Made by a program: the position numbers and the translations under genes | IMG/VR virus record: IMGVR_UViG_3300029712_000001 | Direction: 5' to 3' (one strand) | Length of the DNA stretch: 64,000 bases | Source of the DNA: a virus | Notes under the pieces: generated by a model | The model's input: only the letters and a program-made list of their open reading frames with translations | Told to the model about the DNA's origin: nothing | Database searches by the model: none | Shown here: in pieces, positions 1-63,435 of the stretch | Position numbering within the stretch: the stretch's first letter is position 1 | How the letters are laid out: each line of letters starts with the position of its first letter

Positions 1-477
1 AGAAGAAGGAGACTGTTTGAACTACAACAAACGTATCGTAAAATAAACGATCTTCGATCAGATTTTCAATGGAAATTAGCTCATCAGTTATGCAAACAGT
101 ATGATTATATTTTTATTGAAGATCTAAACATTGAAGGAATGAAACGTTTGTGGGGAAAGAAAGTTTCCGATCTCAGTCATTCTTCTTTTATTGATAAACT
201 TACGTATGTTGCTTCAAAGTATGGAGTGATAGTACACAAGATTGACAAATGGTATCCTTCTTCCAAAACTTGTGAATGTGGCTGCATTAATAAAGGACTG
301 TCGTTACGCGACCGCACGTGGGTATGCCCGTCGTGCGGCGCGGTAAACGACCGTGATGTTCTTGCAGCCCGTAATATACTTCGGAAGGGCATTTCCGAAT
401 TGGAGAGTATGGGTGATTCCGGTTGCAGAAATGCAGGGGTTCCATACGTTTGTATCCAAGAATCCCATTTGCTTTAG
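1..477 (+). CDS. tnpB: TnpB (IS200/IS605-family OrfB RNA-guided nuclease), C-terminal part; 5' end cut by window edge
   Basis: Frame 1 is open from nt 1. About 90% aa identity to the complete 379-aa copy at 19454..20593. Zinc-finger CECGC...CPSCG and a DRDVLAARNIL RuvC-III-like motif. Confidence 0.9.
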   Translation, partial: RRRRLFELQQTYRKINDLRSDFQWKLAHQLCKQYDYIFIEDLNIEGMKRLWGKKVSDLSHSSFIDKLTYVASKYGVIVHKIDKWYPSSKTCECGCINKGLSLRDRTWVCPSCGAVNDRDVLAARNILRKGISELESMGDSGCRNAGVPYVCIQESHLL

Positions 478-496
478 CGATGGGAGTATGTCAATA
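330..496 (+). ncRNA. Putative TnpB omega-RNA (reRNA) scaffold overlapping the tnpB 3' end; 5' limit approximate
   Basis: Position is typical for omega RNA. Stems 408-412/442-446 and 424-427/432-435 (GAAA loop) are kept by compensatory changes in the other copy. Confidence 0.45.
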
Positions 497-1051: not shown

Positions 1052-1708
1052 TTATTTCATCACTTTCCTTACCAACTTAGAAACAGCTTGTGTGATAGTC
1101 CACTTGATGTTTGCATTAACGTTGATAGTCTGAGGAGTACCGTTTGCATCCAAGTTAATTACCTCCTTGTCTATTTCCAAGAACGGATCACCTGCTGTCT
1201 GGGTAATAACCGTATTAGCTGTCCGACCACCGGCGGCCGTCACCTTAAGAGTATTTACCAGATCATTTACATTAGCGTTTTTTGGAATACCGGAGAATAC
1301 GATACTGAAAGCAAATCCCCCTGTTGCACCAGGGTCGCCGGCAATAACAGCACCGTTATTGGTAGCCTTGCCTGCTGCCTGATAGGAGGCTGGTATTTCC
1401 AGCGTCAGAGGATGAGACTTGTCTGGAGTTAAGGAGAACGTTAATTTAGTTGAGTTACTTGTGCCGTTGATTGTTACAGTACCACCTTCTTTCCCTACAG
1501 ATGCAGTAGGATCTATTTTTACGAACTCAGCTACCGGAGCTTGGTTTATGGTAGCACTTTTCTTAACATCCCCGGATTCGGCACCAAATTCTACTTGTAA
1601 CGTACGCTGTACACGACCTTCGTATTTTTCACCTGATACGGTAACCGCCTGATCACCGTCACCTGATCCCGGATTGAAGGTTACAAAACCTATTTTCAAT
1701 TCTGCCAT
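1052..1708 (-). CDS. Ig-like / BACON-like tandem-domain surface or virion-decoration protein (218 aa)
   Basis: Repeated beta-rich segments such as GGTVTINGTSNSTKLTFSL and NGTPQTINVNANIKWTI. It is the lone minus-strand gene here, with its own promoter and terminator. Confidence 0.7.
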   Translation of the reverse strand: MAELKIGFVTFNPGSGDGDQAVTVSGEKYEGRVQRTLQVEFGAESGDVKKSATINQAPVAEFVKIDPTASVGKEGGTVTINGTSNSTKLTFSLTPDKSHPLTLEIPASYQAAGKATNNGAVIAGDPGATGGFAFSIVFSGIPKNANVNDLVNTLKVTAAGGRTANTVITQTAGDPFLEIDKEVINLDANGTPQTINVNANIKWTITQAVSKLVRKVMK

Positions 1709-1751: not shown

Positions 1752-1851
1752 GATTTATTATACGAAAATCATATTATTCATGTCTATAAATTAAAAGTTA
1801 TCTTTATCCCAAAATAAGACAATCATGAGAAGAAGATTTTTTAACAAAATA

Positions 1852-1868
1852 GGGGGGGGGGGGGGGGG
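1852..1868 (+). repeat. Homopolymeric G17 tract
   Basis: Counted directly: 9 G at 1852-1860 plus 8 G at 1861-1868. Confidence 0.95.
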
Positions 1869-1944
1869 TATTTACCTACTGATAATTTTATAGTTTTTGA
1901 TAAATCTGTATCAGATCCGGCTAATATAACAATAAGCGAAGACA

Positions 1945-2703
1945 GTGATTTTTTTAAATAGGTTGATTACAAGTGGCTTTTATAGAGTTCTTTGCAAGAG
2001 CGCTATGGGAGGAGGAGAGGTTTTTGTATGTAGATTAAAAGATAACGACAGTAATTTATATCTTGATGGCAGTCCGGCTGTTCTTACCGGACAAGAAGGT
2101 GATGTGATGGTCGTTTTCTTAGAATTTTGGTATAAATGGTATAAGGTGGATGATAATAAATTTCTTTATCATTTTGCTGATCATGATATTGACGGCACTT
2201 ACATCCATGTCCCGAAATCTCTTGTTGGAGCATATAAAGGATATGTATCTTTGAATAGATTATATAGCTGGAGTGATGTTACTCCTACGACTAACGTATC
2301 ATTATCTGATTTCAGAAGTTACGCAAAAGCACGTGGTACCGGATACCAGGTGATAGATTTCCAACAACATTGCGTGATTGCTATGATGTTGTATGCTAAA
2401 TACAAAACACGTAACCTGCAAGGCGTATTAGGACCCGGTGGCGCAACCTGTGATCCGGCTACAACAACGGGAAGCAGCAACGCAACCGGTGGTGCGGATA
2501 CCGAAAACGAAAGTTCAAAGTACGTTTGTGGCTTAGGACTTGAAGGCGTATTTGGTGGTATCTGTGAATTTGTTGAAGGTGTAGAAATAAATAACCGAGT
2601 TTGGAAAATAACCGATCCTGACGGTTCGATTCGCAACGTGAACGCCGGGACTGTCAGCGGTTGGATAAAAAAATATAGCAGCCGAAAATGGTCCGTTTTT
2701 TGA
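1945..2703 (+). CDS. Fibre-like protein, central fragment (252 codons)
   Basis: Long ORF with a Gly/Thr/Ser-rich stretch and GLGLEGVFGGICEFVEGVEINN, reminiscent of prophage tail-fibre C-terminal modules. The GTG start is doubtful. Confidence 0.6.
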   Translation: MIFLNRLITSGFYRVLCKSAMGGGEVFVCRLKDNDSNLYLDGSPAVLTGQEGDVMVVFLEFWYKWYKVDDNKFLYHFADHDIDGTYIHVPKSLVGAYKGYVSLNRLYSWSDVTPTTNVSLSDFRSYAKARGTGYQVIDFQQHCVIAMMLYAKYKTRNLQGVLGPGGATCDPATTTGSSNATGGADTENESSKYVCGLGLEGVFGGICEFVEGVEINNRVWKITDPDGSIRNVNAGTVSGWIKKYSSRKWSVF

Positions 2704-2704
2704 T

Positions 2705-2950
2705 GTGGTGCCTACAAGAGTTGGCGGTAACAATTTAAAATATTATTCAGATCGTTATTATCAGGCATCGGACAATTCCCTTGTTTTGGCTCGCTCCTAT
2801 TTTAATTCGAATGAGTATGGCGGCGTGGCGTATTCGGGTGCTGGTAAATATGCGTCGAGCCAGGATTTGACCTACGGTTCGCGTCTTGCTTTCCGTGGGA
2901 CCATATCCGAAGTAAGTCCGGAGCAGTTTAAAAAATTACCAGCATTATAA
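2705..2950 (+). CDS. Fibre-like protein, C-terminal fragment (81 codons)
   Basis: Continues the previous ORF in the +1 frame across the T6 run. Ends ...GSRLAFRGTISEV.... Confidence 0.5.
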   Translation: MVPTRVGGNNLKYYSDRYYQASDNSLVLARSYFNSNEYGGVAYSGAGKYASSQDLTYGSRLAFRGTISEVSPEQFKKLPAL

Positions 2951-8160: not shown

Positions 8161-8313
8161 ACAAAATTCAATAGATAAGCGTTTTAAAACAACATTATGT
8201 AGGGTTTTCCCACAAAATTAAGGATTACAGTGCTTTAAAACAGCAAAATGTGAGTTTATTCTACAAAATTCAATAGGTTGAGAGTTGAAAACTATATTCT
8301 ATAGATTGGTGGT
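8161..8313. repeat. Three imperfect tandem 51-nt repeats
   Basis: Units start with ACAAAATT at 8161, 8212 and 8263. Each has TT(T)AAAAC about 25 nt in. Confidence 0.8.
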
Positions 8314-19056: not shown

Positions 19057-19457
19057 TGAAAACACAAAAAGAATATGCCTATAAGATTGGTGAAATCGTT
19101 CTCAGGGATGTGGAAAGTTGCCAGAGTGACTGGTTCCTTATTGATCAGGAAATATTTATGCTTCCTGAAAACCGGAACAAGGCATTTATTTTGGGAACCC
19201 GGAAGACCGGATGTGATTTAATAATACTGGGTGGCACTAATTGTGATGAAGGTAGTATGGATTGGCTTTTCGGTTGCCTTGGCAATGAAAACTTCTATGT
19301 ATGCCAGCCAGTATCTTTCTATAAATCACAACAAGAAATCCAGAAAGTAAATCCGCTTTATGCTTTCAAGGTGGCCACTGCTTATTTTAGAGAACAAGGG
19401 AAGGTTCCGGTATTTGAAGATAGTAACTGTAGATTATTGACATACTCCCATAGCTAA
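19056..19457 (+). CDS. Hypothetical protein (133 aa) whose last 7-8 codons and stop come from the IS right end
   Basis: The IS boundary at 19434/19435 lies inside the ORF. The C-terminal residues LTYSHS and the stop codon are read from IS sequence. Confidence 0.65.
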   Translation: MKTQKEYAYKIGEIVLRDVESCQSDWFLIDQEIFMLPENRNKAFILGTRKTGCDLIILGGTNCDEGSMDWLFGCLGNENFYVCQPVSFYKSQQEIQKVNPLYAFKVATAYFREQGKVPVFEDSNCRLLTYSHS

Positions 19458-19605
19458 AGCAAATGGGATTCTTGGATACAAGCGCAAGAAACCCCGATGT
19501 TGCTATCGCTGGAATTACTCTTGCTCTCCAATTCGGAAATGCCCTTCCGAAGTATATTACGGGCTGCAAGAACATCACGGTCGTTAATTGCGCCGCACGC
19601 TGGGC
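19435..19605 (-). ncRNA. Putative omega-RNA scaffold of the complete copy; 5' limit approximate
   Basis: Stems 19485-19489/19519-19523 and 19495-19498/19505-19508 covary with copy 1. Confidence 0.45.
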
Positions 19606-20593
19606 ACACCCACGTGCGGTCGCGTAACGACAGTCCTTTATTAATGCAGCCGCATTCACAAGTTTTGGAAGAAGGATACCATTTGTCAATCTTGTGTATC
19701 GTTACTCCATATTTTGAAGCGACATACGTAAGTTTATCAATAAAAGAAGAATGACTAAGATCAGAAACCTTCTTTCCCCACAAACGTTTCATTCCTTCAA
19801 TGCTTAGATCTTCAATGAAAATATAATCATATTGTTTGCATAAATCATGAGCTAATTTCCATTGAAAATCTGATCGAAGATCGTTTATTTTACGATACGT
19901 TTGTTGTAGTTCAAACAGTCTCCTTCTTCTATTATTGGATCCTTTCTTTGCATTAGAAAGCCGTTTGTTTAGTTTTCTAATCCTGTTTTGATATTGTTTG
20001 AAGAATAATGGAGACCCAATTTTGCTACCATCACTTTTAGTTAGATAAGTTTTCAGTCCAAAATCCAATCCGATAGATGCACCATCATGTGTCTTTCTAT
20101 AAGAGTTTGAATGATTATGATCTGTAACTACAATCAAACTAAAACGGGAACAGGTTTCTCTAACTATTCTAATTTGTTTAACATTACCTTCGTAGCCTCT
20201 ACTGTATGAGAATCTAAATCGTTTGTTTCCTTTGTTAATTGTTAGACAATTCCCATTTAGGGTAAACCCACCTTGTTTGAAAACAAAAGAGTTGAATTTC
20301 TCCGGTGATTTAAACTTAGGAGGTCGTTTAGCTAACTTCTTAAAGAAACGATTATAAGATTCATCAAGACGTTCAAGTATTTCTTGTGTTGTTTGAGAAT
20401 GAAGTAGATTTCTTTTAATTCTTTTGGCAAAATACTTCTTCATTTTACCAATTGATATATATTTCCCAAATAGTTTGTAGTATCTACGTTGTAGAGCTAA
20501 CGCATGATTCCATACAAAACAACATTCACGAAGCATCTTTTCCAGATACTTCGTTTTCCTGGAATGGTATATGTTGTATTTGTATGAAATCAT
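19454..20593 (-). CDS. tnpB: TnpB RNA-guided nuclease (379 aa)
   Basis: Full-length OrfB-type ORF with an IEDL RuvC-type motif, zinc finger CECGC...CPACG, and DRDVLAARNIL. Confidence 0.92.
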   Translation of the reverse strand: MISYKYNIYHSRKTKYLEKMLRECCFVWNHALALQRRYYKLFGKYISIGKMKKYFAKRIKRNLLHSQTTQEILERLDESYNRFFKKLAKRPPKFKSPEKFNSFVFKQGGFTLNGNCLTINKGNKRFRFSYSRGYEGNVKQIRIVRETCSRFSLIVVTDHNHSNSYRKTHDGASIGLDFGLKTYLTKSDGSKIGSPLFFKQYQNRIRKLNKRLSNAKKGSNNRRRRLFELQQTYRKINDLRSDFQWKLAHDLCKQYDYIFIEDLSIEGMKRLWGKKVSDLSHSSFIDKLTYVASKYGVTIHKIDKWYPSSKTCECGCINKGLSLRDRTWVCPACGAINDRDVLAARNILRKGISELESKSNSSDSNIGVSCACIQESHLL

Positions 20594-22208: not shown

Positions 22209-22946
22209 ATGGAAAATCCAATTATTGTTCCGTTTGATTTAAATACGGCGAGAAAAATCAAAAGCGGAGAAATAGAAGGTTCGGTATTAATTAATGATAT
22301 TGAAATAGAATTTGTATATGAGTCGAAAAACTGTGCAAGTCCTTATAATTTGCTTTTTGTAAAAAAAGATGGATATGGGATAAGCGCTATATATGCTAAC
22401 ACAGAAGGTTGTACTTTTGCTGACGCCACTCTGGAATTGAGGGTAGAGGCTGGAGCGTATTTTAAGAAAGGAGATGTATTAACAAGCACTAAAGGATGTC
22501 AATTTATATATGATGGACTTATTACCAAAGGGGTAATGGGAAGTATATGTGGAATGGTAACATCTGGAGATATTGGGTTTGATTGCAAATTATGGACTGA
22601 TGTGTATGATGGATATAAAAAACGGCATGTAAGAAAGGCTATAGAAGAAGAGAAGAAATTTTTAGCAGAAAAGATTATAAAAGTCGAAGACAGTAGAAAA
22701 ATAGATATAATAAAACGATATTTAAGTGAATATGAGTATCTGTTAGATGAGATGCCGAAACATGACTTCAAACCATTTGAACGAGTATTGGTAAGAAGAA
22801 CTAACCAAGAGAGGTGGAAATTGCATTTATTTTCCAGAGAATCAGGAGAAGATAATAAATACGAATGCTTAGGAGGGGTAGGATTTAGTCAGTGTATCCC
22901 ATACGAAGGAAACGAACATCTTTTAGGAACCAATAAAAACAAATAA
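22209..22946 (+). CDS. Family 3 protein (245 aa), tandem paralog A
   Basis: PFDLNTARKI...DFKPFERVLVR...YEGNEHLLGT aligns along the full length with 22951..23688. Confidence 0.8.
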   Translation: MENPIIVPFDLNTARKIKSGEIEGSVLINDIEIEFVYESKNCASPYNLLFVKKDGYGISAIYANTEGCTFADATLELRVEAGAYFKKGDVLTSTKGCQFIYDGLITKGVMGSICGMVTSGDIGFDCKLWTDVYDGYKKRHVRKAIEEEKKFLAEKIIKVEDSRKIDIIKRYLSEYEYLLDEMPKHDFKPFERVLVRRTNQERWKLHLFSRESGEDNKYECLGGVGFSQCIPYEGNEHLLGTNKNK

Positions 22947-22950
22947 GATT

Positions 22951-23688
22951 ATGGAATATAAAATGGTAACAATCCCGTTTGATTTAGAAACGGCAAAAAA
23001 AATAAACATAGGGGAAAGAGTAGGTCAGATTGTGACAGAGAAAGGACGAAATAGAGCAGAAATAGTATATGAAGACAATTCGTCAATTTGTCCGTTATTG
23101 GTTGTAATTCATTCTATTTCTGTATCGGCAGATTGGTTTTCTGCTACAGGAAAAGCATTTAGCAGCGAAAATCGCCTCCTTCTTGAAGTCCCGGAATATA
23201 CTACATTTAAAGATGGAGATGTGTTAAGCAACGAAGAAGGAAATTTTATTTTTATCTTAAATACTAATGGGAAATATTTAACATCTTTGTATGCGAGTCT
23301 TGCAGCGGGAACAAGTCTTAATATATCGGATAATATTGCTGCACACGAAAACCACATAGAATGTTATAGACTTGCAACAGATTCGGAAAAACAGAAGATG
23401 ATTAAAGCGTTAAAGAAAAGCGAAAATCCTAAAGCAAAAGAATATCTGAAACGCTTCTTCGGGATTAAAGAAGAGCCGAAATATGATTTTAAGCCGTTTG
23501 ACAAAGTGCTGGTAAGAAAAGAAGGAAATAAAAAATGGAATATCAGTTTGTTTGCAAGGGAAATTGTGGACGATTATAATGGATTGCCTTATAAGTACGA
23601 ATGTTCCAATGGAACATTATGGGATTATTGTATTCATTTTGAGGGTAATGAATGTCTTTTAGGAACTACTGAAAATCCAGAAAAATGA
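22951..23688 (+). CDS. Family 3 protein (245 aa), tandem paralog B
   Basis: PFDLETAKKI...DFKPFDKVLVR...FEGNECLLGT. Confidence 0.8.
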   Translation: MEYKMVTIPFDLETAKKINIGERVGQIVTEKGRNRAEIVYEDNSSICPLLVVIHSISVSADWFSATGKAFSSENRLLLEVPEYTTFKDGDVLSNEEGNFIFILNTNGKYLTSLYASLAAGTSLNISDNIAAHENHIECYRLATDSEKQKMIKALKKSENPKAKEYLKRFFGIKEEPKYDFKPFDKVLVRKEGNKKWNISLFAREIVDDYNGLPYKYECSNGTLWDYCIHFEGNECLLGTTENPEK

Positions 23689-29059: not shown

Positions 29060-29083
29060 AGATATTAATTTAACAAAAGAAAA

Positions 29084-29410
29084 ATGGAAATAGATGATAT
29101 TGAAAAAGCAGCAAAGCATTATCAAGAAAAAGATCATGATATCTGGACAGATAAAGGCATGGCAACAGAATTACAAAAAGCCTTCAAAGCTGGTGCAAGC
29201 TGGCGCATAGGCAGCGTGTGGCACGATGCAAGAGAAAAGCCAGACAAAGGGAAGTTGCTCATCGCGGAGGATATTGACAGTGCTTATGATTTGGTCTATT
29301 CAACCAAGAGCAAGCCATGGGAAGAACTTTCGGAAGAGAATCATTATATGCGCTGGGCATGCATCGAAGACTTGCTCCCATGCAAAGAAGAAGGGGGGGG
29401 GGATGAATAA
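29084..29410 (+). CDS. Hypothetical protein (108 aa) ending in the G10 tract
   Basis: Ends ...PCKEEGGGDE, with the three Gly codons read from G10. Confidence 0.65.
   Translation: MEIDDIEKAAKHYQEKDHDIWTDKGMATELQKAFKAGASWRIGSVWHDAREKPDKGKLLIAEDIDSAYDLVYSTKSKPWEELSEENHYMRWACIEDLLPCKEEGGGDE
29393..29402 (+). repeat. Homopolymeric G10 tract at a gene junction
   Basis: Counted directly: 8 G at 29393-29400 plus 2 G at 29401-29402. ATG of the next gene is at 29403. Confidence 0.95.
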
Positions 29411-29660
29411 AAGATTAAGAAATGCCATAAAGAAAGCAGAAAACAAACAAAATGAAGCAGACATTGCACTGCAATCCATTTGTAAATATCTTGCTTTCTC
29501 AGGATTTAAAGATGATAATGAGCCTATTTTAAGCATGGCTTCAGGAAATGAAATCATACTTGAATGGAACTGTTCAGAAATGGATGCGAATGAGATTATA
29601 GACTGTATGGAATCAGCAGGATATATAACTCCCGATGATTTTATTGGAGTGTTAGATTAA
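29403..29660 (+). CDS. Hypothetical protein (85 aa)
   Basis: ATG immediately follows G10. A G9 tract would fuse it in frame to 29084..29410. Confidence 0.6.
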   Translation: MNKRLRNAIKKAENKQNEADIALQSICKYLAFSGFKDDNEPILSMASGNEIILEWNCSEMDANEIIDCMESAGYITPDDFIGVLD

Positions 29661-29671
29661 AGTATAAAATT

Positions 29672-29749
29672 ATGAAGAGAGAAAATATTGAAAAAGCTGC
29701 AAAGATTTATCAAGAAAAAGACATGATATCTGGGCAGGTAAAGGCTTAA
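29672..29749 (+). pseudogene. Degenerate duplicate of the 5' end of 29084..29410
   Basis: MKRENIEKAAKIYQEKD matches IEKAAKHYQEKD. A 1-nt deletion relative to copy 1 (aaagacatgat versus aaagatcatgat) causes an early stop. Confidence 0.6.
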
Positions 29750-29768
29750 GAAGAAAATTTGAAAGGTT

Positions 29769-49695: not shown

Positions 49696-50237
49696 TGATT
49701 AGAACAAGATTTTACATTAAAAAATCCGACTGCGATAACGACTGCCGTCCAGTCAAATGGCCTATAAAATATCCATATTGGTGTAGTGGTGAATCCGATG
49801 ATTCATTCATACTTGTAGCGTATGCCGAAGACGAAGACAGCATAAAAGAGCTGTGGCCGGAAGCATACGATATTAATGTCTTAGAAAAAGATACTGAGGT
49901 TAAATTCACATTAAGATTTCCTAAGCCTAAATGGTATGAATTGCAAGAAGAGAGATTAGAAGAGTATGATAAATTATATGGTAAATTCGTATGGGTTACG
50001 GACATGTGTCTAAAAGATGGGAAAATAAGAAAGGTAAAAGCCAGAATAGAAGATTGTGGTGGTCTTTTATTAGCCGACACTCCTGGTCGTTACACCCCTT
50101 ATCAGATAGGGGATTGTGCTTTTGAAAGCAAGGAAGAGGCTTTAAAACATGCAGAGGAACAGAGAACGGATTTAATTAAGTCTCTTAGGTTACAAATACT
50201 CGAACTTGAAAATCTAAAATTCGAATACGATGATTAA
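49695..50237 (+). CDS. Hypothetical protein (180 aa)
   Basis: TAATG overlap with dcm. No nuclease motif recognised. Confidence 0.7.
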   Translation: MIRTRFYIKKSDCDNDCRPVKWPIKYPYWCSGESDDSFILVAYAEDEDSIKELWPEAYDINVLEKDTEVKFTLRFPKPKWYELQEERLEEYDKLYGKFVWVTDMCLKDGKIRKVKARIEDCGGLLLADTPGRYTPYQIGDCAFESKEEALKHAEEQRTDLIKSLRLQILELENLKFEYDD

Positions 50238-50943
50238 TTACGCGGCAAAAGCCAGAAAAGCTTATTTGATAAACAATTTCGATAAGATTCTTAACAGTCT
50301 CAACACGCTTCATTCAACGGTTGAGACCATGACGTTATTCGTAAACGACCAGGCTTATAATTACATTCTTAAGCTGAAGGAAGTAATTAAGGGTGGTCCT
50401 ATGTACAGACATAATGTCAAACGATTCTTGAATGACATGGACAAAGAGATAAAGAGGTACAATGCTTCTATCTACTACATAAATAAAGAGCGTAGTGAGG
50501 TTATAGCTGATATAACACAAGCGATGGAAGATTGCCTCATGCCATACATAGACGACCTGGCCGGCGCTATAAGGGCAGCCGTGTGGTCGAGGGGTGTGTC
50601 CGAGGAGCGGACGGAAGCGGCGGTACTGTCCCTAATCGTATCCTCCTTGGCCATGACATCAGGCAGACTTATTTCAGGTGGATATCAGATCATGAAAGAA
50701 ATGGGTGGTGGCTGGGGTGGTAATCCATTTACGTTTATGAGCATTGATAAGATAAGACACTTATCTACATCATTATCTGATGCTACTACCGGTGGGGAAA
50801 TAGCTCTTGAAGAAAAAGAAGCCAATGACATAACTAAGGCAATGGATATTTTTATTGAGAAAATGTCTGATTCGGATATTGTTGATAAGGTGATCAGCAT
50901 ACTTGAAGAGGCTGAATCTAAAAATAAGGAGGAGCGATCGTGA
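50230..50943 (+). CDS. Hypothetical protein (237 aa)
   Basis: ATG ORF. Contains GC island 50551-50655. Confidence 0.7.
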   Translation: MINYAAKARKAYLINNFDKILNSLNTLHSTVETMTLFVNDQAYNYILKLKEVIKGGPMYRHNVKRFLNDMDKEIKRYNASIYYINKERSEVIADITQAMEDCLMPYIDDLAGAIRAAVWSRGVSEERTEAAVLSLIVSSLAMTSGRLISGGYQIMKEMGGGWGGNPFTFMSIDKIRHLSTSLSDATTGGEIALEEKEANDITKAMDIFIEKMSDSDIVDKVISILEEAESKNKEERS

Positions 50944-51131
50944 ATTATTTGGATGGGTATGTAGAAGAAGTTCTTTCTGAGCCGTACTATGATGATTACG
51001 GATCTGGGATTTTTAGGTGGTGGGTGAAAGTATCTTACGTTTGCGAAGGCATAGGAGCTGTCACTACCTTAATGTTTGATACGAGAGAAGAAGCGGAGAC
51101 AGTAAAACCAGGTTACAAATTTTTATGCTGA
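50940..51131 (+). CDS. Hypothetical protein (63 aa)
   Basis: GTG start overlapping the previous stop. Confidence 0.5.
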   Translation: MNYLDGYVEEVLSEPYYDDYGSGIFRWWVKVSYVCEGIGAVTTLMFDTREEAETVKPGYKFLC

Positions 51132-51138
51132 AAATAAT

Positions 51139-51375
51139 ATGAAGTATTTTATTTTATTGATGGCACTTGTGTTATCATCATGTTCGCATGATGATAGTCA
51201 GGTTAATAACGGATGGGTTATATATAATCTACGTCCTTTAGAAGATGGATGTATAATGTATTATGGTGAAGACGAAAGAATTTCAATATTTTATAATAAT
51301 AGGCTTATAAAATTCGTTGGATACCAAGGGGAATACAATATAGGAGATTCTATTAAAATCGTAAAAGTGAAATAA
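51139..51375 (+). CDS. Small lipoprotein (78 aa)
   Basis: MKYFILLMALVLSSC is a signal peptide with lipobox LSSC. Confidence 0.75.
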   Translation: MKYFILLMALVLSSCSHDDSQVNNGWVIYNLRPLEDGCIMYYGEDERISIFYNNRLIKFVGYQGEYNIGDSIKIVKVK

Positions 51376-51376
51376 T

Positions 51377-51865
51377 ATGAAAAATAATTTAAAACTCGTA
51401 TGTCCAAAATGTGGCACCCCTCACCAGCCTCATTCTCCGCACACGATGGATGCAGATGGATTTGAAAGGTGTGAGATAAGAACGGTCATGGAAGACAGGG
51501 GATGGTGCTACGAATGCTCTTTTTGGCAAAATATGTACGACAAACACAAAGACGATCCGGGATGGGTTAGGATAGACGGTGAAAGCTGGGTGCTTAAGCC
51601 TATGGTGGAAAACGTACCGAGCGGATGGAACAGCCTTGGATGTGGTGGAAGAAAAATGTATATCAATATCGAAGGGAAAGGCATTGTTGTATCAAATAAC
51701 TGCTGGTGCCAAGGTGATGTTTCGGACGCATTCAAGGATCTGATGCCTGATAATGCTACTTGGGCTACGAAGGAGGAATTTGACAAAGCTCCTGTAGTAG
51801 GACATATCATAGAAGGTATTGGTTTAGTTTTCACAGATAGGGAAGGTCATGAAGTTAATGCTTAG
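51377..51865 (+). CDS. Cys-rich hypothetical protein (162 aa)
   Basis: CPKCG...C...C motifs. Last gene of the rightward block. Confidence 0.7.
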   Translation: MKNNLKLVCPKCGTPHQPHSPHTMDADGFERCEIRTVMEDRGWCYECSFWQNMYDKHKDDPGWVRIDGESWVLKPMVENVPSGWNSLGCGGRKMYINIEGKGIVVSNNCWCQGDVSDAFKDLMPDNATWATKEEFDKAPVVGHIIEGIGLVFTDREGHEVNA

Positions 51866-51908: not shown

Positions 51909-51955
51909 ACAACAATCCCCAACCATACAATAGGCGTACGGTTGGGGATTGTTGT
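51909..51955. terminator. Bidirectional terminator at the convergence point
   Basis: 16-bp perfect stem ACAACAATCCCCAACC (51909-51924) / GGTTGGGGATTGTTGT (51940-51955). Confidence 0.8.
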
Positions 51956-52635
51956 CATATCGTAAAATTAAGTGTTTTTTCTAATATCAGATATTCAGTA
52001 TGAACTTTACTTCCGCCATCATCTATCAAGTCCAAACTAATATAAGCTGTATATGATACATGATGATCACCAGGAGCAAGACGTTTCATTTCTGATAAGA
52101 ACATAGAATTTAAACCTTGGCCAGACCATGATTCTGGATATGGCAAAGGTGTAAAGTCGGCGTCTGTACATCTTACAACCCAAGTAAGATTAGGATCTGC
52201 CCTAACTATTCTATCATGAGGTCCATCAATTACAAGATCTGGCATCTTATATTGGTAACTATCATAATTAAGGACAATAGGATCACCAAAGTTTACACTG
52301 TATATAGCAGCAGGTGGAGTAAAGCTTGTTATTAAAAGGGTTCTATTAATCCTATTGGTTGTTCTTAGCGTAAACTCATCAGGTGCTATCACACTTACTC
52401 CAAATCCATAATAAGGAGAGGTTGTTAAAGCAATAGCAAGAACCACCGAATCCTGTTCAAGCAATTCCTCTGTCGTATCAACCTGACTATCGATCTCTTG
52501 CCTATCTTCCATTGGAACACCGCCTTGGACACTTATGGAATCCAGCCGTTCTTTTTTAGACAGAAAGATAAATTGCCCGCCCTGTGGAATGGTGCCTACT
52601 TTCTTTCCTTCTACGATTACCCCCCCCCTATACAA
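51955..52635 (-). CDS. Fibre / receptor-binding-like protein C, long ORF (226 codons from TTG); natural ATG is out of frame at 52691
   Basis: Beta-rich ORF directly after gene B. The MRRRF-encoding ATG at 52691 reads ...CIGGG then stops, and joins this ORF only with G10 instead of G9. Confidence 0.7.
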   Translation of the reverse strand: MYRGGVIVEGKKVGTIPQGGQFIFLSKKERLDSISVQGGVPMEDRQEIDSQVDTTEELLEQDSVVLAIALTTSPYYGFGVSVIAPDEFTLRTTNRINRTLLITSFTPPAAIYSVNFGDPIVLNYDSYQYKMPDLVIDGPHDRIVRADPNLTWVVRCTDADFTPLPYPESWSGQGLNSMFLSEMKRLAPGDHHVSYTAYISLDLIDDGGSKVHTEYLILEKTLNFTI

Positions 52636-52691
52636 TTGCTAACTATCTTATACTCATATAGTTTAGCATTATTTTCAAATCTTCTTCTCAT
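52617..52691 (-). other. 24-codon MRRRF leader ORF ending just after the G9 tract
   Basis: atgagaagaagatttgaaaat...tgtata-G9-taa. The first 15 nt are identical to the leader at 1825. Confidence 0.8.
52620..52628 (-). repeat. Homopolymeric G9 tract (C9 on the plus strand)
   Basis: Counted directly: c52620 plus 8 c at 52621-52628. Confidence 0.95.
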
Positions 52692-52695
52692 AATT

Positions 52696-53313
52696 TCATA
52701 AAATTAATTCGGTAAAGGGGCGGACATAACGTGGATTACTCCTTGTACTTGTATCCAAATGATCCCCTTGGATGTTTATATCATAATACCACGAATAGGT
52801 AGATTGTGTAGATTGAGTGGATGTCCACATTTTATTACTCATTATCGTACCTCCTACCATTAAAAGGCATTCGTTTATTTCATTAGCATACAATGATATC
52901 AAAAAAAACTCTCCGGCGCCACCTACATATCCATTTTGACCATTTTTAAATAAATAGCTATTAGCTTTATTAAAAGCGTAATTTTCATTACTGGTATCAT
53001 ATTCAAGATACGCATTCTGATTTTCACGCCCCCAATAATCCTTTTTAACGGTCTCCATATAAGAACTATTTTGTGCAAATACATTGTCTACTCTTCCATC
53101 CTTACCCCAACGAAATGTGCCAATATATTCGGTGGCTATAACAAAACACACTTTATCTACAAGAGCTATTCCATTGTATAGATCATTGGAATATCCTTTA
53201 TTAGACCAATTTTCTTTTGTATATAATCCTCCATCTACATGTTGGATGTATATGCCTTTATTGATTATAAGCGAGGGATTTACCCCCATCCCTGTTTGAA
53301 ATCTTCGTCTCAT
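52696..53313 (-). CDS. Fibre / receptor-binding-like protein B with DUF1566-like C-terminus (205 aa from ATG 53313)
   Basis: Starts MRRRFQTGMGV. C-terminal MWTSTQS...SWYYDI..G......YVRPF. The listed N-terminal extension (to 53400) overlaps a terminator hairpin. Confidence 0.75.
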   Translation of the reverse strand: MRRRFQTGMGVNPSLIINKGIYIQHVDGGLYTKENWSNKGYSNDLYNGIALVDKVCFVIATEYIGTFRWGKDGRVDNVFAQNSSYMETVKKDYWGRENQNAYLEYDTSNENYAFNKANSYLFKNGQNGYVGGAGEFFLISLYANEINECLLMVGGTIMSNKMWTSTQSTQSTYSWYYDINIQGDHLDTSTRSNPRYVRPFTELIL

Positions 53314-53345
53314 GATTTTTGTTTGCAAGATAGCAATAATTGACA

Positions 53346-53390
53346 ACATAAAAGAAACCGGTTCCCTATCATCTCTGACTGAGAACCGGT
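53346..53390 (-). terminator. Intrinsic terminator after the giant gene
   Basis: ACCGGTTC (53357-53364) pairs with GAACCGGT (53383-53390). A U-rich run follows on the minus strand. Confidence 0.65.
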
Positions 53391-53527: not shown

Positions 53528-56500
53528 CTATTTGTAACTAACATCATCGTCTCCTTCCGAATCAGGAGTGGCGCCGATGAAGAACATCATTGACTTGTTG
53601 TTCGTCTGCTGCCACCAATTATAGGCGCGCGCTACGTCTTCCGGCGTCTTGATATTATACCATTGTTTGATAAACGTCTGTTTGGCGAGTTGCCTAAATA
53701 ACTTAAACTCTCCTTTGTATGTACCGGACGTCACCTTATCAAGTGAGTAGTTCCTAAGATCGGTAAGATCCTTAAGTTTCCGTCCCATAACAAACGGGTC
53801 GTTAATGATATCTACCACATTAAGCTCCATAATAAACGGCATCTGTGAAGCTATTTCATTTATGGTTCTGAATCCGACGTAGGATCCGAATTGAGTAAGC
53901 CAACTTTCCTCGTTTTCATCATCATCACGCCATCCGGCAAGAAGCATAGATACGGCTTGCATGATAAGGAACGTGCCGGCATAGACACTGAGACGTTTTA
54001 TATTGGTTTTCTCTACCTCATTCATATTATCTTTATTTTCGTTCCAGGCATCTATGATGTTTTTCATACCAGACTCGGAAGCTAAGCTAAATGTTTTGGC
54101 TATCATATTCTTTAACGTAATTGACAGTCCTTCCTCTTCTTGCATTGTTTGGAAATTGAAGCCACGTCTTTTCCACAGGCGTTGAGCTGCCAGCACCAGC
54201 CAGCCTCGGTGGGCGGTCATGAACCTGGCTATCCAGTTGCGCGATGCGGCAGTTCGGTTTTCTTCATTCAAAGATCCGTTACATATCTGCGACAAGCTAC
54301 GGACTTGATTCCTGGTTATAGCCATCTGGGTTTCAACTTCCTCAACAGTAACACCCGATCCCGGCTTTACAACCACCTTTCCATCCACGACGTCTACCAT
54401 ACTCCATAAAGTGCGATCTTTTAATGCATCCCATTCTCTTTTTATGGTACTCTGTTCTTTATTGCGTTCTTTTTCCATCTTGAAATCTTGGAACGTATAG
54501 AACCGGCCTTTGTAATAACGAACATTGTCCATAGTAGCAATCATAACCTGCGGATCAAGAGGGTAGTTCAGGATTTCCATAAAAGCATACATAGGCGAAC
54601 GCATTAAGGTCCTGGCCACTCTATTATATCCGGCACCATACATACGATTTCGGATATTGAATATCCCCATTCTCTCACCTATGACATATAATTTGCTTTT
54701 CCTATCTATGTCTCCGGTTTCTGCTATACAAGATGGAGCAAGGCGTGAAAATTCAGCCGATGCGTATTTAAGGGAGTCTTTGCTTATATACTGTCCTACG
54801 GCAGATTCCATGATGAGGTTGATATGACCTGTCAGGGCGCCGGTAGCTGCCACAAACGGGGACAGCGCCAGGTTCATGACCGACATAAATCTTTCAACGG
54901 CCATCATTATCCTGGTAAGGTCTACTGTGTATCCACCGATGTTTACCGTCAGTTTTTTGGTGTTCATTCTAATGCCATAATAATGGTCATTGAAGAAGTC
55001 CCTGAACATCTGATATGCTTGGGTTGCTTCAGCTTTCTTCCCGCCTTCAAATTGCTTATTCAGTAACATCTGCTCCAGTCCTTGGGCAAGCTCTATAGAT
55101 TTCTGCTTTTCGTTGTATAATGATGATTGCATCATAAGCATCGAATAAGAGTAACCAAAATCATGAGATACGTCATCTTGGTTCTCTAATTCATATATGT
55201 AGTATTTAGGTATGGACCGAACCCTATCTTCCGGATCATATACCTCACCCTGGCGTGTTTTACCATACAGGGAGTCATCTACGCGGTCAAGACATAAGTC
55301 GGATACGAAGTTCCTGACCGTACTTTTAAGGCTGATACCTAACCCTTCTATACGTTCTATATCTTGTTTGGATATCTGTGGAATAGCATACAGGTTCGGG
55401 CTCTGCTCTTTGTATAGATCAAGGGATTGTCTTTTTATTTCCTTGAGTTTTTGAATCATATTCCACTGCTCTACGTTTTTAGTAGCGACCTCATTACCAT
55501 CAGCATCATATTTGATACCAAAGTCATTGAGATACGATTCATCACGATACAGGCTTTTCTTAGGCATGCGATGACCATACCCATGATCTTTTACATAATC
55601 AGGATTACGACCGCTATTTTCGGCTTCAGATTCAGCCACCCATGCCCTTGCAGGGTCGAAAGACAGGTACGATATGTCCATGCCATAATCTTGGGTGGAT
55701 GTACCGTTTTGTACGTCCTTAACCATCTGCGCCACATCTATCTCACCTCGACCAATTTTGTCGATCATAGCCGCATATCCGGTAGGCGCCATGCGTTTAT
55801 AATACGAAAAGACCTGGCTCCTGGCAAATTCATTAACAATAGCATTAGCTTCTTCTATGCCCGCTTTTATGTCAGCTTCTATACCCTCTTCTCTTGTATT
55901 ATTTAAAAATAAGCTGGCCATCTTAGTATTAACAGCATTCCTGAAATCTCTACCGTCTAATTCTTTGCTTATACCGAGCTTTTCTGACAGGTAGTTGGTT
56001 TCAGATACGGTAAACAGATATCGGTTATCAGCAGCCTTAAACAGCTTATCCCTTAAAGCCTGAATCCTTTTTGCTTTCTTTGCCGTAGTATGACGTTGCA
56101 CAAACTTCCATTCCACTTCCTTGGAGTCAGCAAGAGCATTTAAATAAGACTGATTTACTTCGTTTTCAGCCTTACTGCTTTTAGTAAGGTACTTATCAAT
56201 ATCTTCAAGACCCACCATCTTAGCATAATCTATTAAGATAGCGTAATCAGCTTCAATAGCTTCAGATGCGGCCCTAAAAGCATCTCTTTCAGATGAGGTA
56301 AATGTCGCTTCGTTAATTTCTCCGATATCAGCCACATCTCGGTTGTTTCCGATTATTTCCTTGATAATGGCCTTATTTTTTTCTATATCTTTCACAATCG
56401 AATCCACGTCAGTCGCATCTCTATCACTTGTCGTAGAACTAATGATATCATGCGCCATTTTAAGATACGAAGCCTTGTTATTTGATTCGGTACGTGCCGA

Positions 56501-62799: not shown

Positions 62800-63435
62800 C
62801 TATACTTTCTTTATCCTACAATACAAACCCCACAAAAACTCAGCGGAGAAACTATCCCATACATTATTCTTCTGCCAAAGTTCTACTTTGTTAACAAACC
62901 AAGACCATGTGGGACCCTCATATGAAGAATCAGATGATGATCCCAATCCGATTTTCTCCATTTCATTCGCCACATCAGAATAAGGATCTAAATCGACTCC
63001 CCTAATCATGTTAATAATATCATCCTTGTCTAACGTAAATTGAAACCGCTCCTTGTTAGTAGGCGGATCTTGATTCAATTTACCAGTCGCAAGCCATTTT
63101 CCATCATGATACAATTCGGCAAGTTTCTTTACCTTATTTTTAAGAAAAGAATACTCTTGTGTGACTTCTATAAAATCAGCTTCGTTAGCTTCACCCTCTA
63201 TGAAGATAACGGTTTTGCTTCCAGGTCTATGATCGTCTAAGCTTGCCGGGATTCCCAATATCGTCCATCCTTTAAACTCAGCTATCTTAAAACGCATGAC
63301 ATCAAACACCTTATAGAAATCATCACAATCTACAGATTCTATTACCTTAATATCCTCTTCTGTGAATTTACCTCGTATTGGAATAACGTGATGACCGGGG
63401 CAGCCATCGGTTCCGAAATATGCGATTCTAACCAC
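62800..63435 (-). CDS. Hypothetical protein (211 aa)
   Basis: ATG ORF. Confidence 0.75.
   Translation of the reverse strand: MVRIAYFGTDGCPGHHVIPIRGKFTEEDIKVIESVDCDDFYKVFDVMRFKIAEFKGWTILGIPASLDDHRPGSKTVIFIEGEANEADFIEVTQEYSFLKNKVKKLAELYHDGKWLATGKLNQDPPTNKERFQFTLDKDDIINMIRGVDLDPYSDVANEMEKIGLGSSSDSSYEGPTWSWFVNKVELWQKNNVWDSFSAEFLWGLYCRIKKV

Follow-up and report, generated by a model that had tools for sequence, protein, structure and literature searches.

We analysed a window of 64,000 nt (the whole stretch of DNA under study, taken from IMG/VR virus record IMGVR_UViG_3300029712_000001), which is part of a crAss-like gut phage genome of ~150 kb, and followed three of its small genes—termed A, B and C—that open with the same five residues, MRRRF. 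Our analysis indicates that A, B and C probably represent a lineage-specific family of small late genes under poly-G phase variation, likely serving as accessories of the tail or of host recognition. This interpretation is carried by the shared N-terminal tag, the hypermutability of the G tract behind it, the effect of tract length on the reading frame, the upkeep of alleles that are out of frame and the exchange of 5' cassettes, all of which can be read in the DNA of the window and its relatives. In the layout that we propose for the family, MRRR[FY] would be followed by a short spacer, an [I/V]-G-G-G hinge and one of many unrelated bodies. The Gly hinge, spelled GGG GGG GGG G in many members, would form a homopolymer that slips during replication and thereby switches the gene reversibly between an in-frame state (ON) and an out-of-frame state (OFF) that yields just a peptide of 15-45 amino acids (aa), so that the family loci would act as classical contingency loci at the 5' end of the gene. 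In the genome studied here, B is ON, with AT breaking its tract, C is OFF by one base (G9, with G10 as the ON length) and A is both OFF and decayed. The features on which this account builds are the following.

52696..53313, minus strand: gene B (MRRRFQTGMGV...), an intact open reading frame (ORF) of 205 aa, in frame (ON) and first of a two-gene unit
53283..53292, minus strand: interrupted G tract of B (GGGATGGGGG), encoding G-M-G plus the first base of the next V codon
52617..52691, minus strand: leader of gene C, MRRRFENNAKLYEYKIVSNCIGGG followed by TAA; the OFF state
52620..52628, minus strand: G9 contingency tract of C, in which G10 (or G7) restores the frame
51955..52620, minus strand: body of gene C, 221 codons plus stop, open and out of frame with its own start
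1825..2950, plus strand: gene A (MRRRFFNKI-Gn-...), which stops after 22 codons with G17; a pseudogene here, broken at three homopolymers
1852..1868, plus strand: G17 tract of A, out of phase and the longest seen (relatives, G4-G11)
1949..1955, plus strand: T7 in A, a second frameshift lesion (T6 in 30/30 relatives with matching flanks)
2667..2673, plus strand: A7 in A, a third frameshift lesion (A6 in 17/17 relatives with matching flanks)

The three genes start with ATGAGAMGAAGATTT, at 1825 on the plus strand (A) and at 52691 (C) and 53313 (B) on the minus strand. The window contains exactly three copies of the motif ATGAGRMGRAGRTTT, with 0.26 expected from shuffled sequences and none of 100 shuffles reaching three, and no MRRR start was found among the ~70 other ORFs of the window. 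Since the bodies of A, B and C display no pairwise similarity (BLASTP E > 0.1), the proposal of the sequence-only reading that one MRRRF start is carried by genes with unrelated bodies is borne out, as is its description of an uninterrupted G17 in A, an uninterrupted G9 in C and an interrupted run in B. The span 51955-53313, stated in that reading for the observation, takes in B and C alone; A lies at 1825. Runs of at least 8 G are found in the window at 1852-1868 (G17), 29393-29402 (G10) and 52620-52628 (G9, minus strand) and nowhere else, with 0.57 expected by shuffling. Moreover, the sequence ATA-Gn-TAA(T/A)TC around the tract, encoding [I]-G-G-G-[V/N], is common to A, B and C; GGG accounts for 15% of the Gly codons in this genome.

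To follow the tracts beyond the window, we compared ~215 related phage contigs, all of them metagenome assemblies; in IMG/VR, gene B is present in 138 contigs, gene C in 88 and gene A in 86, most of these contigs being 80-158 kb long. Both ON and OFF alleles are present for all three genes. In C, the tract occurs as G8, G9, G10 and G11 and in the interrupted forms G5TG4, G6AG3, G5AG4 and G7AGG, with G10 being the in-frame length for the main subtype and G9 for a second subtype. The tract of A spans G4-G11 on four post-tract sequence variants, each with a different in-frame length. In B, the relatives carry GGGAT followed by G4, G5, G6, G8 or G9, and the run is unbroken in one G10 and one G9 allele; G5, G8 and G10 are in frame, and G4, G6 and G9 are out. 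Gene B had been taken to be constitutively in frame, which holds for the interrupted run of this window but not for the lineage, where relatives range from G4 to G10 and the frame is not locked. When A, B and C are pooled, alleles with a longest G run of at most 5 are ON in 68 cases and OFF in 4, as compared with 46 ON and 75 OFF for runs of at least 8. Alleles with at least 8 G are thus in near-random phase (46/121 ON), the frame is maintained where the tract is short or interrupted, and interrupted alleles are nearly all ON. In this scheme, GGAGGTGGC is the tract spelling that would lock the frame ON.

The coding capacity behind the tract is maintained in OFF alleles. A complete body of ~355 codons is kept by 38 of the 41 OFF alleles of A, and the bodies of C are of uniform length, with internal stops in 0/62 sequences, 35 of which come from OFF alleles; window A is the exception. 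The C homologues P0186 (50% identity) and P0189 (36%) retain the MRRR[FY]...YEY.IVSNCIGGG leader together with G10. The 24-aa leader of C is ~80% identical in homologues with bodies that are just 36-50% identical, and homologues diverged to 36% still share invariant structural residues. Because the slippery G10 is kept in these diverged homologues despite the low share of GGG among Gly codons, the slippery spelling appears to be a maintained option rather than an accident. Hinges without a slippery run occur in paralogues, namely GGTGGTGAT in type D and GGCGGA in type C3.

These data bear on the alternative that A, B and C are decaying, dispensable 'morons', in which G runs reflect accidental inactivation and not a maintained switch. 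The ratio of non-synonymous to synonymous polymorphism (pN/pS) of B (0.93) and C (1.16) would fit such decay, as would an OFF state in ~60% of long-tract alleles, the three frameshifts of window A, the loss of the start codon in two A alleles and the internal stops in three B alleles. In addition, gene A was not found in csAssE-Sib (OR575929.1, 151 kb, human gut), the only relative in GenBank. However, the nearly always complete bodies of OFF alleles, the pN/pS of 0.35 for the A body and the retention of leader and G10 in C homologues down to 36% identity speak against this alternative. So do the presence of an MRRR[FY] gene in the slot after B in 78/78 relatives whose sequence reaches it and the abundance of the family gene clusters (3360 and 2677 member sequences). 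A relaxed pN/pS, moreover, is to be expected of genes that are often OFF, and we consider decay as the general explanation unlikely.

The tracts also mutate faster than the sequence around them. We grouped loci by identical flanks of +/-150 nt (several lengths also occurred on identical +/-400 nt), and 5/6 of the C haplotypes with several members carry more than one tract length, with one B haplotype carrying five. A control T8 run inside B has length 8 in 79/79 loci, and 0/12 of its haplotypes are mixed. Elsewhere in the compared regions, A/T runs have the lengths seen in the relatives, and gene A alone deviates, for which reason a general homopolymer error in the window assembly was rejected. 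The same comparison addresses the alternative that the G-run differences are sequencing or assembly noise, with the genes being ON everywhere or mis-called. This alternative draws on the error-prone nature of G/C homopolymers of 8-17 nt, on the relatives all being metagenome assemblies and on a T8 length variation of ~10% in a wider locus set. Yet T8 is constant across the 79 loci and 12 shared haplotypes, and the G tracts vary on shared haplotypes. Noise would also not produce a 68/4 versus 46/75 frame split with interrupted alleles almost all in frame, the slippery codon choice is kept over deep divergence and the homopolymers of the window outside A match those of relatives. We therefore rate noise as highly unlikely. 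Since tract lengths vary on shared haplotypes and frame state tracks tract class, the loci are better described as contingency loci, and the comparison bears out the view of the G runs as genuine, hypermutable switches of the reading frame. Contingency loci are expected to carry a homopolymer of ~7 nt or more, either in the promoter or near the 5' end inside the ORF, found here as G9 in C, G17 in A and G5 in B (up to G10 in relatives). They should also vary in length among close relatives in a way that changes the frame, as A, B and C all do; mutate faster than both their surroundings and the T8 control, as observed; and be kept up while OFF, as in the 38/41 A and 35/35 C alleles.

Homopolymers of at least 9 nt can cause RNA polymerase slippage, and the G runs could in principle act at the level of RNA or the ribosome, with every template giving a mixture of short and full-length products and no heritable state. 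Besides the slippage itself, this alternative would accommodate the G10 at the gene junction 29393-29402, where a one-base change fuses two ORFs, and the frequent OFF lengths in consensus genomes. Length polymorphism is observed in the DNA, though, and short or interrupted tracts have been selected in frame; the two mechanisms are not mutually exclusive, and we deem a switch without heritable state very improbable. The junction itself lies on the plus strand, where the G10 forms the stop/start boundary between the small ORF 29084..29410 and an ORF from ATG 29404; G9 would fuse both into one protein. A first scan with the flank of this run returned no matches, and a protein-based scan then found relatives: among 33 of them, 21 carry G5 followed by TGATAATG, 3 carry G6, 1 carries G9 and the remainder have shorter, interrupted or no runs. 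As the G10 is an expansion relative to these, it suggests that G runs are generally unstable in this lineage.

Turning to the individual genes, C begins 4 nt past the stop of B and has 88 IMG/VR relatives; its homologues form 210 clusters at 90% identity, mostly called at 245 aa. An AlphaFold2 model of full-length C is of high confidence (predicted local distance difference test score, pLDDT, 92) and displays an elongated all-beta fold with long hairpins; one of its strands is made up of residues 12-17, and residues 1-6 are disordered. No structural neighbour of this model was found in PDB or BFVD except its own family, and no significant match came from searches of Pfam, NCBIfam and PDB sequences. 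C1 was not found in GenBank phages, nor C in bacterial genomes. Reassignment of stop codons was rejected as a route through the out-of-frame stretches, in which both TAA and TAG occur; the standard code, moreover, leaves the 2148-aa gene upstream of B open.

Gene B is annotated as hypothetical in csAssE-Sib and has no significant match in Pfam, NCBIfam or PDB sequences. The DUF1566 lectin-like module that had been proposed for it was not supported, as the Pfam domain Lcl_C (PF07603) reached E = 0.78 and 10.5 bits against a cut-off of 34.9. In one distant relative, L334 (Logan ERR14696456; 1500-1560 and 2130-2210), B carries an uninterrupted G9 and C a G9, and both are out of frame together. 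There, B was rescued by the gene caller from a TTG inside the putative promoter, giving rise to a spurious N-terminus, MQKKNEKKISNRGG; this protein is the representative of the cluster with 3360 members.

Gene A offers the best link to a function. Reading through the window copy needs a correction of the G run together with T7->T6 and A7->A6. Because G17 and the T7 and A7 lesions call for three corrections, window A is best regarded as a decayed triple-frameshift copy of a gene that is intact in relatives, and not as a live switch. The claim that two of the three genes are gated by poly-G is consequently sustained for C, with its G9, and not for A, which also requires the other two repairs. 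Across the frameshift sites, the reconstructed 374-aa product matches phrog_14959 (3e-45) and phrog_5302, a 'tail protein' (1.7e-27). Its full length can further be aligned, at 64-70% identity, to the last ~370 residues of a 698-aa fibre whose gene adjoins that of a putative reverse transcriptase. In tblastn searches, A matched variable proteins of the Hankyphage diversity-generating retroelement (DGR) with E values of 1e-9 to 6e-15, with annotated DGR repeats lying under the match, and the uncultured phage cr10_1 at 2e-17. Instead of being a Gly/Thr-rich fibre, as had been suggested, A shares homology with the distal portion of tail fibres targeted by DGRs, and its assignment as a tail-fibre tip resembling DGR variable proteins seems reasonably grounded. 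No repeat of the 3' end of A and no reverse transcriptase (RT) motif were found within the window. The possibility of A being remotely targeted by the DGR of csAssE-Sib was rejected, as the template and variable repeats of the latter did not match and the fibre proteins had no similarity.

In smaller contigs of 10-35 kb (L225-L240 and L242), the A homologue is the C-terminal half of the 698-aa tail fibre. In L225 (1894-3990; 4720-5721), an ORF downstream of the fibre carries a YCDD motif like that of reverse transcriptases, a DGR-like arrangement judged from the motif. The fibre-tip domain of such contigs corresponds to a free-standing, poly-G-gated gene in the lineage of the window.

Beyond the three genes of the window, the MRRR[FY] tag is universal in a family with at least eight body types, all in or adjoining the structural module. 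In distant relatives, three tandem MRRR[FY] genes follow a ~2140-aa protein, in the order C2-B-C1 or C2-D-C1. In the complete csAssE-Sib genome there are five of them, none outside the structural block; a 2208-aa structural protein precedes one, and another two are located immediately upstream of the muzzle gene. A survey of IMG/VR for MRRRF plus 12-42 nt plus G8 returned relatives of gene A and no other matches. At the same junction, the slot after B is occupied by C1, which has the poly-G tract, or by one of the tract-free genes C2 (149 aa) and C3 (242 aa); this substantiates the notion of swappable modules in the sense of one slot with three alternative cassettes behind one start. Within the tag, the Arg codons vary synonymously only (AGA/CGA/AGG), and residue 5 changes from F to Y only; as the variation of the Arg codons is synonymous, it suggests that the peptide is constrained and not just the DNA, and MRRR[FY] appears to be constrained at the protein level. 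It may serve as an adaptor.

Several recombinants were identified among these genes. In L106 and L115, the B leader is joined to the C body exactly at the G run; L158/L159 and P0061 combine the N-terminal part of B with the C-terminal part of C; P0063 unites the N-terminal part of C2 with the C-terminal part of B; and P0028 is a chimera of B and C1. Their sequences show that recombination inside the array is frequent. We propose that the conserved start and the G run would serve as recombination handles, leading to C-slot replacement, B/C fusions and chimeras. Synonymous polymorphism (pS) is 0.02-0.03 in B and C versus 0.10-0.17 in the flanks 50230-51865 and 53531-54430, i.e., ~5-fold lower, and this low pS, together with a pN/pS near 1, fits a recent spread of cassettes across diverged backbones under relaxed or diversifying selection. 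DGR mutagenesis was rejected as the source of the high pN/pS of B and C: the window yielded neither a template-like repeat nor an RT motif, and variable sites occur throughout both genes, at every codon position.

A tag with consecutive Arg residues also invites comparison with twin-arginine translocation (Tat) signals: RRRFF/RRRFL resembles the core S-R-R-x-F-L-K, and the C2 variant of L243 continues with the moderately hydrophobic SYDLFQTIIPVFAVSISAP, but a Tat-like export or targeting signal on secreted or host-directed factors is scarcely credible—as already concluded in the sequence-only reading—given that the residues after MRRRF in A, B and C1 are polar or Gly-rich with no hydrophobic h-region, that the strand at residues 12-17 of the C model leaves residues 1-6 as the free part and that the genes sit in the late structural block.

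Several observations weigh against phase variation of host-recognition accessories and temper the strength with which we put it forward. The association of frame state with tract class (Fisher p = 2e-16) ignores shared ancestry; G/C homopolymers are the hardest to sequence, and some length calls may be wrong. The two near-identical locus pairs that could be compared have equal tract lengths, and heterogeneity within one population, like reversibility, is deduced from differences between consensus assemblies. The pN/pS of ~1 for B and C, compared with 0.03-0.20 for their neighbours, is what dispensable drifting genes would show as well. Furthermore, the part common to all members amounts to five residues and the Gly hinge, with residues 1-6 predicted to be disordered, and the structure model of B is of low confidence (pLDDT 32). 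No family, fold or annotation was found that links B or C to the virion or to receptor binding. A distal tail or receptor-binding role is accordingly reasonably grounded for A, and for B and C it would follow from their position.

That position is defined by the late/structural block, of which B and C are the final two genes. They lie directly 3' of a gene for a 2148-aa protein that matches phrog_37651, a 'virion structural protein'; in csAssE-Sib, the depositor annotations include crAss-type muzzle and ring proteins and a DGR. The elements around the pair are listed below.

53357..53390, minus strand: hairpin with a U-rich stretch behind it, located in the gap that separates B from the 2148-aa structural gene (-19.6 kcal/mol, z = -3.4), likely the terminator of the upstream gene
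53322..53332, minus strand: candidate Bacteroidota-type -7 promoter element TATCTTGCAAA, 8 nt upstream of the B start codon
51909..51955, minus strand: 21-bp hairpin at the end of gene C (-35.1 kcal/mol, z = -7.25), kept in csAssE-Sib and likely a terminator

The hairpin at 51909..51955 marks the meeting point of the convergent late and early gene blocks. As hairpins flank B and C on both sides, the two genes look like one transcription unit. The element TATCTTGCAAA is kept in the distant relatives L243, L244, L090 and L334, where it precedes the MRRRF gene that opens the array; this would be in line with a promoter function; its match by itself is not above chance within the window. A scan for sigma-70 promoters and terminators was uninformative for a host of this kind.

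Additional features were observed elsewhere. An inverted repeat of 496 nt (92% complementary) joins 1-496 (plus strand) and 19435-19930, with an ORF at 19454..20593 on the minus strand, and marks two copies of an IS605/TnpB-type element, one of them cut by the start of the window; several TnpB genes are annotated in csAssE-Sib, and one adjoins an MRRRF gene truncated to 32 aa. A stretch at 8161-8304 (plus strand) that looks intergenic contains three direct 42-nt repeats with a spacing of 51 nt and 67-71% identity to the first. Tandem paralogous pairs on the plus strand, at 22209-23688 (245 aa + 245 aa) and at 29068-29764 around the G10 junction, give rise to direct repeats spaced by 736-745 nt and 587-588 nt, respectively. 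Adjoining A, the gene at 1052-1708 (minus strand) is annotated in csAssE-Sib as a glycosyl hydrolase of family 5 / xyloglucanase; there was no PHROG match here, and from its sequence the product looks like a BACON-type carbohydrate-binding module. Finally, a G11 run in L246 (3256-3266; csAssE-Sib 63256-63266) ends 18 nt upstream of another MRRRF start, with the run start 29 nt upstream; the gene behind it (record 63285, 240 aa) has a Gly-rich, fibre-like start. This run could be a poly-G switch of the promoter or 5' untranslated region type within the MRRRF family.

The principle of poly-G contingency is known. The closest parallel is provided by the receptor-binding genes of Campylobacter Fletchervirus phages, which contain hypermutable poly-G tracts (Sorensen et al. 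2021, Cell Rep 35:109214, as cited in bioRxiv 10.1101/2025.10.21.683753). The two systems share poly-G tracts of ~7-11 nt inside late genes, slippage that leads to frame changes and subpopulations with different proteins, and hosts with phase-variable surface structures. They differ in that our genes belong to a crAss-like gut lineage of Bacteroidales type and encode unrelated proteins, and in that the tract is always found 10-25 codons into the gene, within the Gly hinge that follows the shared MRRR[FY] tag. Unrelated bodies here also share one 5' cassette and are exchanged by recombination, and receptor binding is a putative role for the genes of our lineage. As in the contingency loci of Neisseria, Haemophilus, Campylobacter and the coliphages T2/T4 (bioRxiv 10.1101/2025.10.21.683753), homopolymer slippage occurs inside the ORF, with a reversible frame switch and a slippery tract upheld by second-order selection. 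In T-even phages, the tracts consist of short A/T runs that are found in many classes of genes and are under-represented in tail fibres (bioRxiv 10.1101/2025.10.21.683753); here, long G runs are concentrated in one tail-module gene family.

Other diversification systems offer partial analogies. The A body is homologous to DGR variable proteins such as Hankyphage p00 (27-30% identity, E 1e-9 to 2e-17), with csAssE-Sib holding a DGR of its own, and DGR systems diversify host recognition, as the A family presumably does. Unlike in DGRs, the outcome here is ON or OFF by frameshift and not adenine mutagenesis, in a window that lacks an RT motif and a template repeat for A. The G segment of Mu and the C segment of P1 likewise place alternative distal modules behind a constant part and yield host-range heterogeneity; in contrast to these inversion systems, our lineage has separate genes, each with its own short constant start, and the choice is made by frameshift. 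No invertase was found, and no inverted repeats flank B and C. What is distinctive here is the shared 5' cassette, which unites tag, hinge, switch and recombination handle. No publication linking crAss-like phages to poly-G switching was found.

These findings bear on the biology of a very common group of viruses. CrAss-like phages are among the most abundant human gut viruses. To our knowledge, only host-side variation has been described so far for their persistence with hosts that have phase-variable capsules. Contingency on the phage side, in very abundant clusters, can be checked directly from tract lengths in existing metagenomic reads, with the shared 5' cassette providing a simple marker for finding the whole family; poly-G switching would also account for the split or truncated forms in which gene callers report the family. 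The tract state would diversify host recognition, plausibly against phase-variable Bacteroidales surfaces, and related phages—and probably phages in one population—would make different sets of host-recognition proteins. A more far-reaching and rather doubtful extension is that tag and hinge form a universal plug docking a dozen unrelated modules to one site of the crAss-like tail, with independent poly-G switches choosing the modules per virion and recombination at the 5' cassette swapping them between phages. If true, this arrangement would constitute a combinatorial, heritable yet reversible host-range system that mirrors the phase variation of Bacteroidales capsules.

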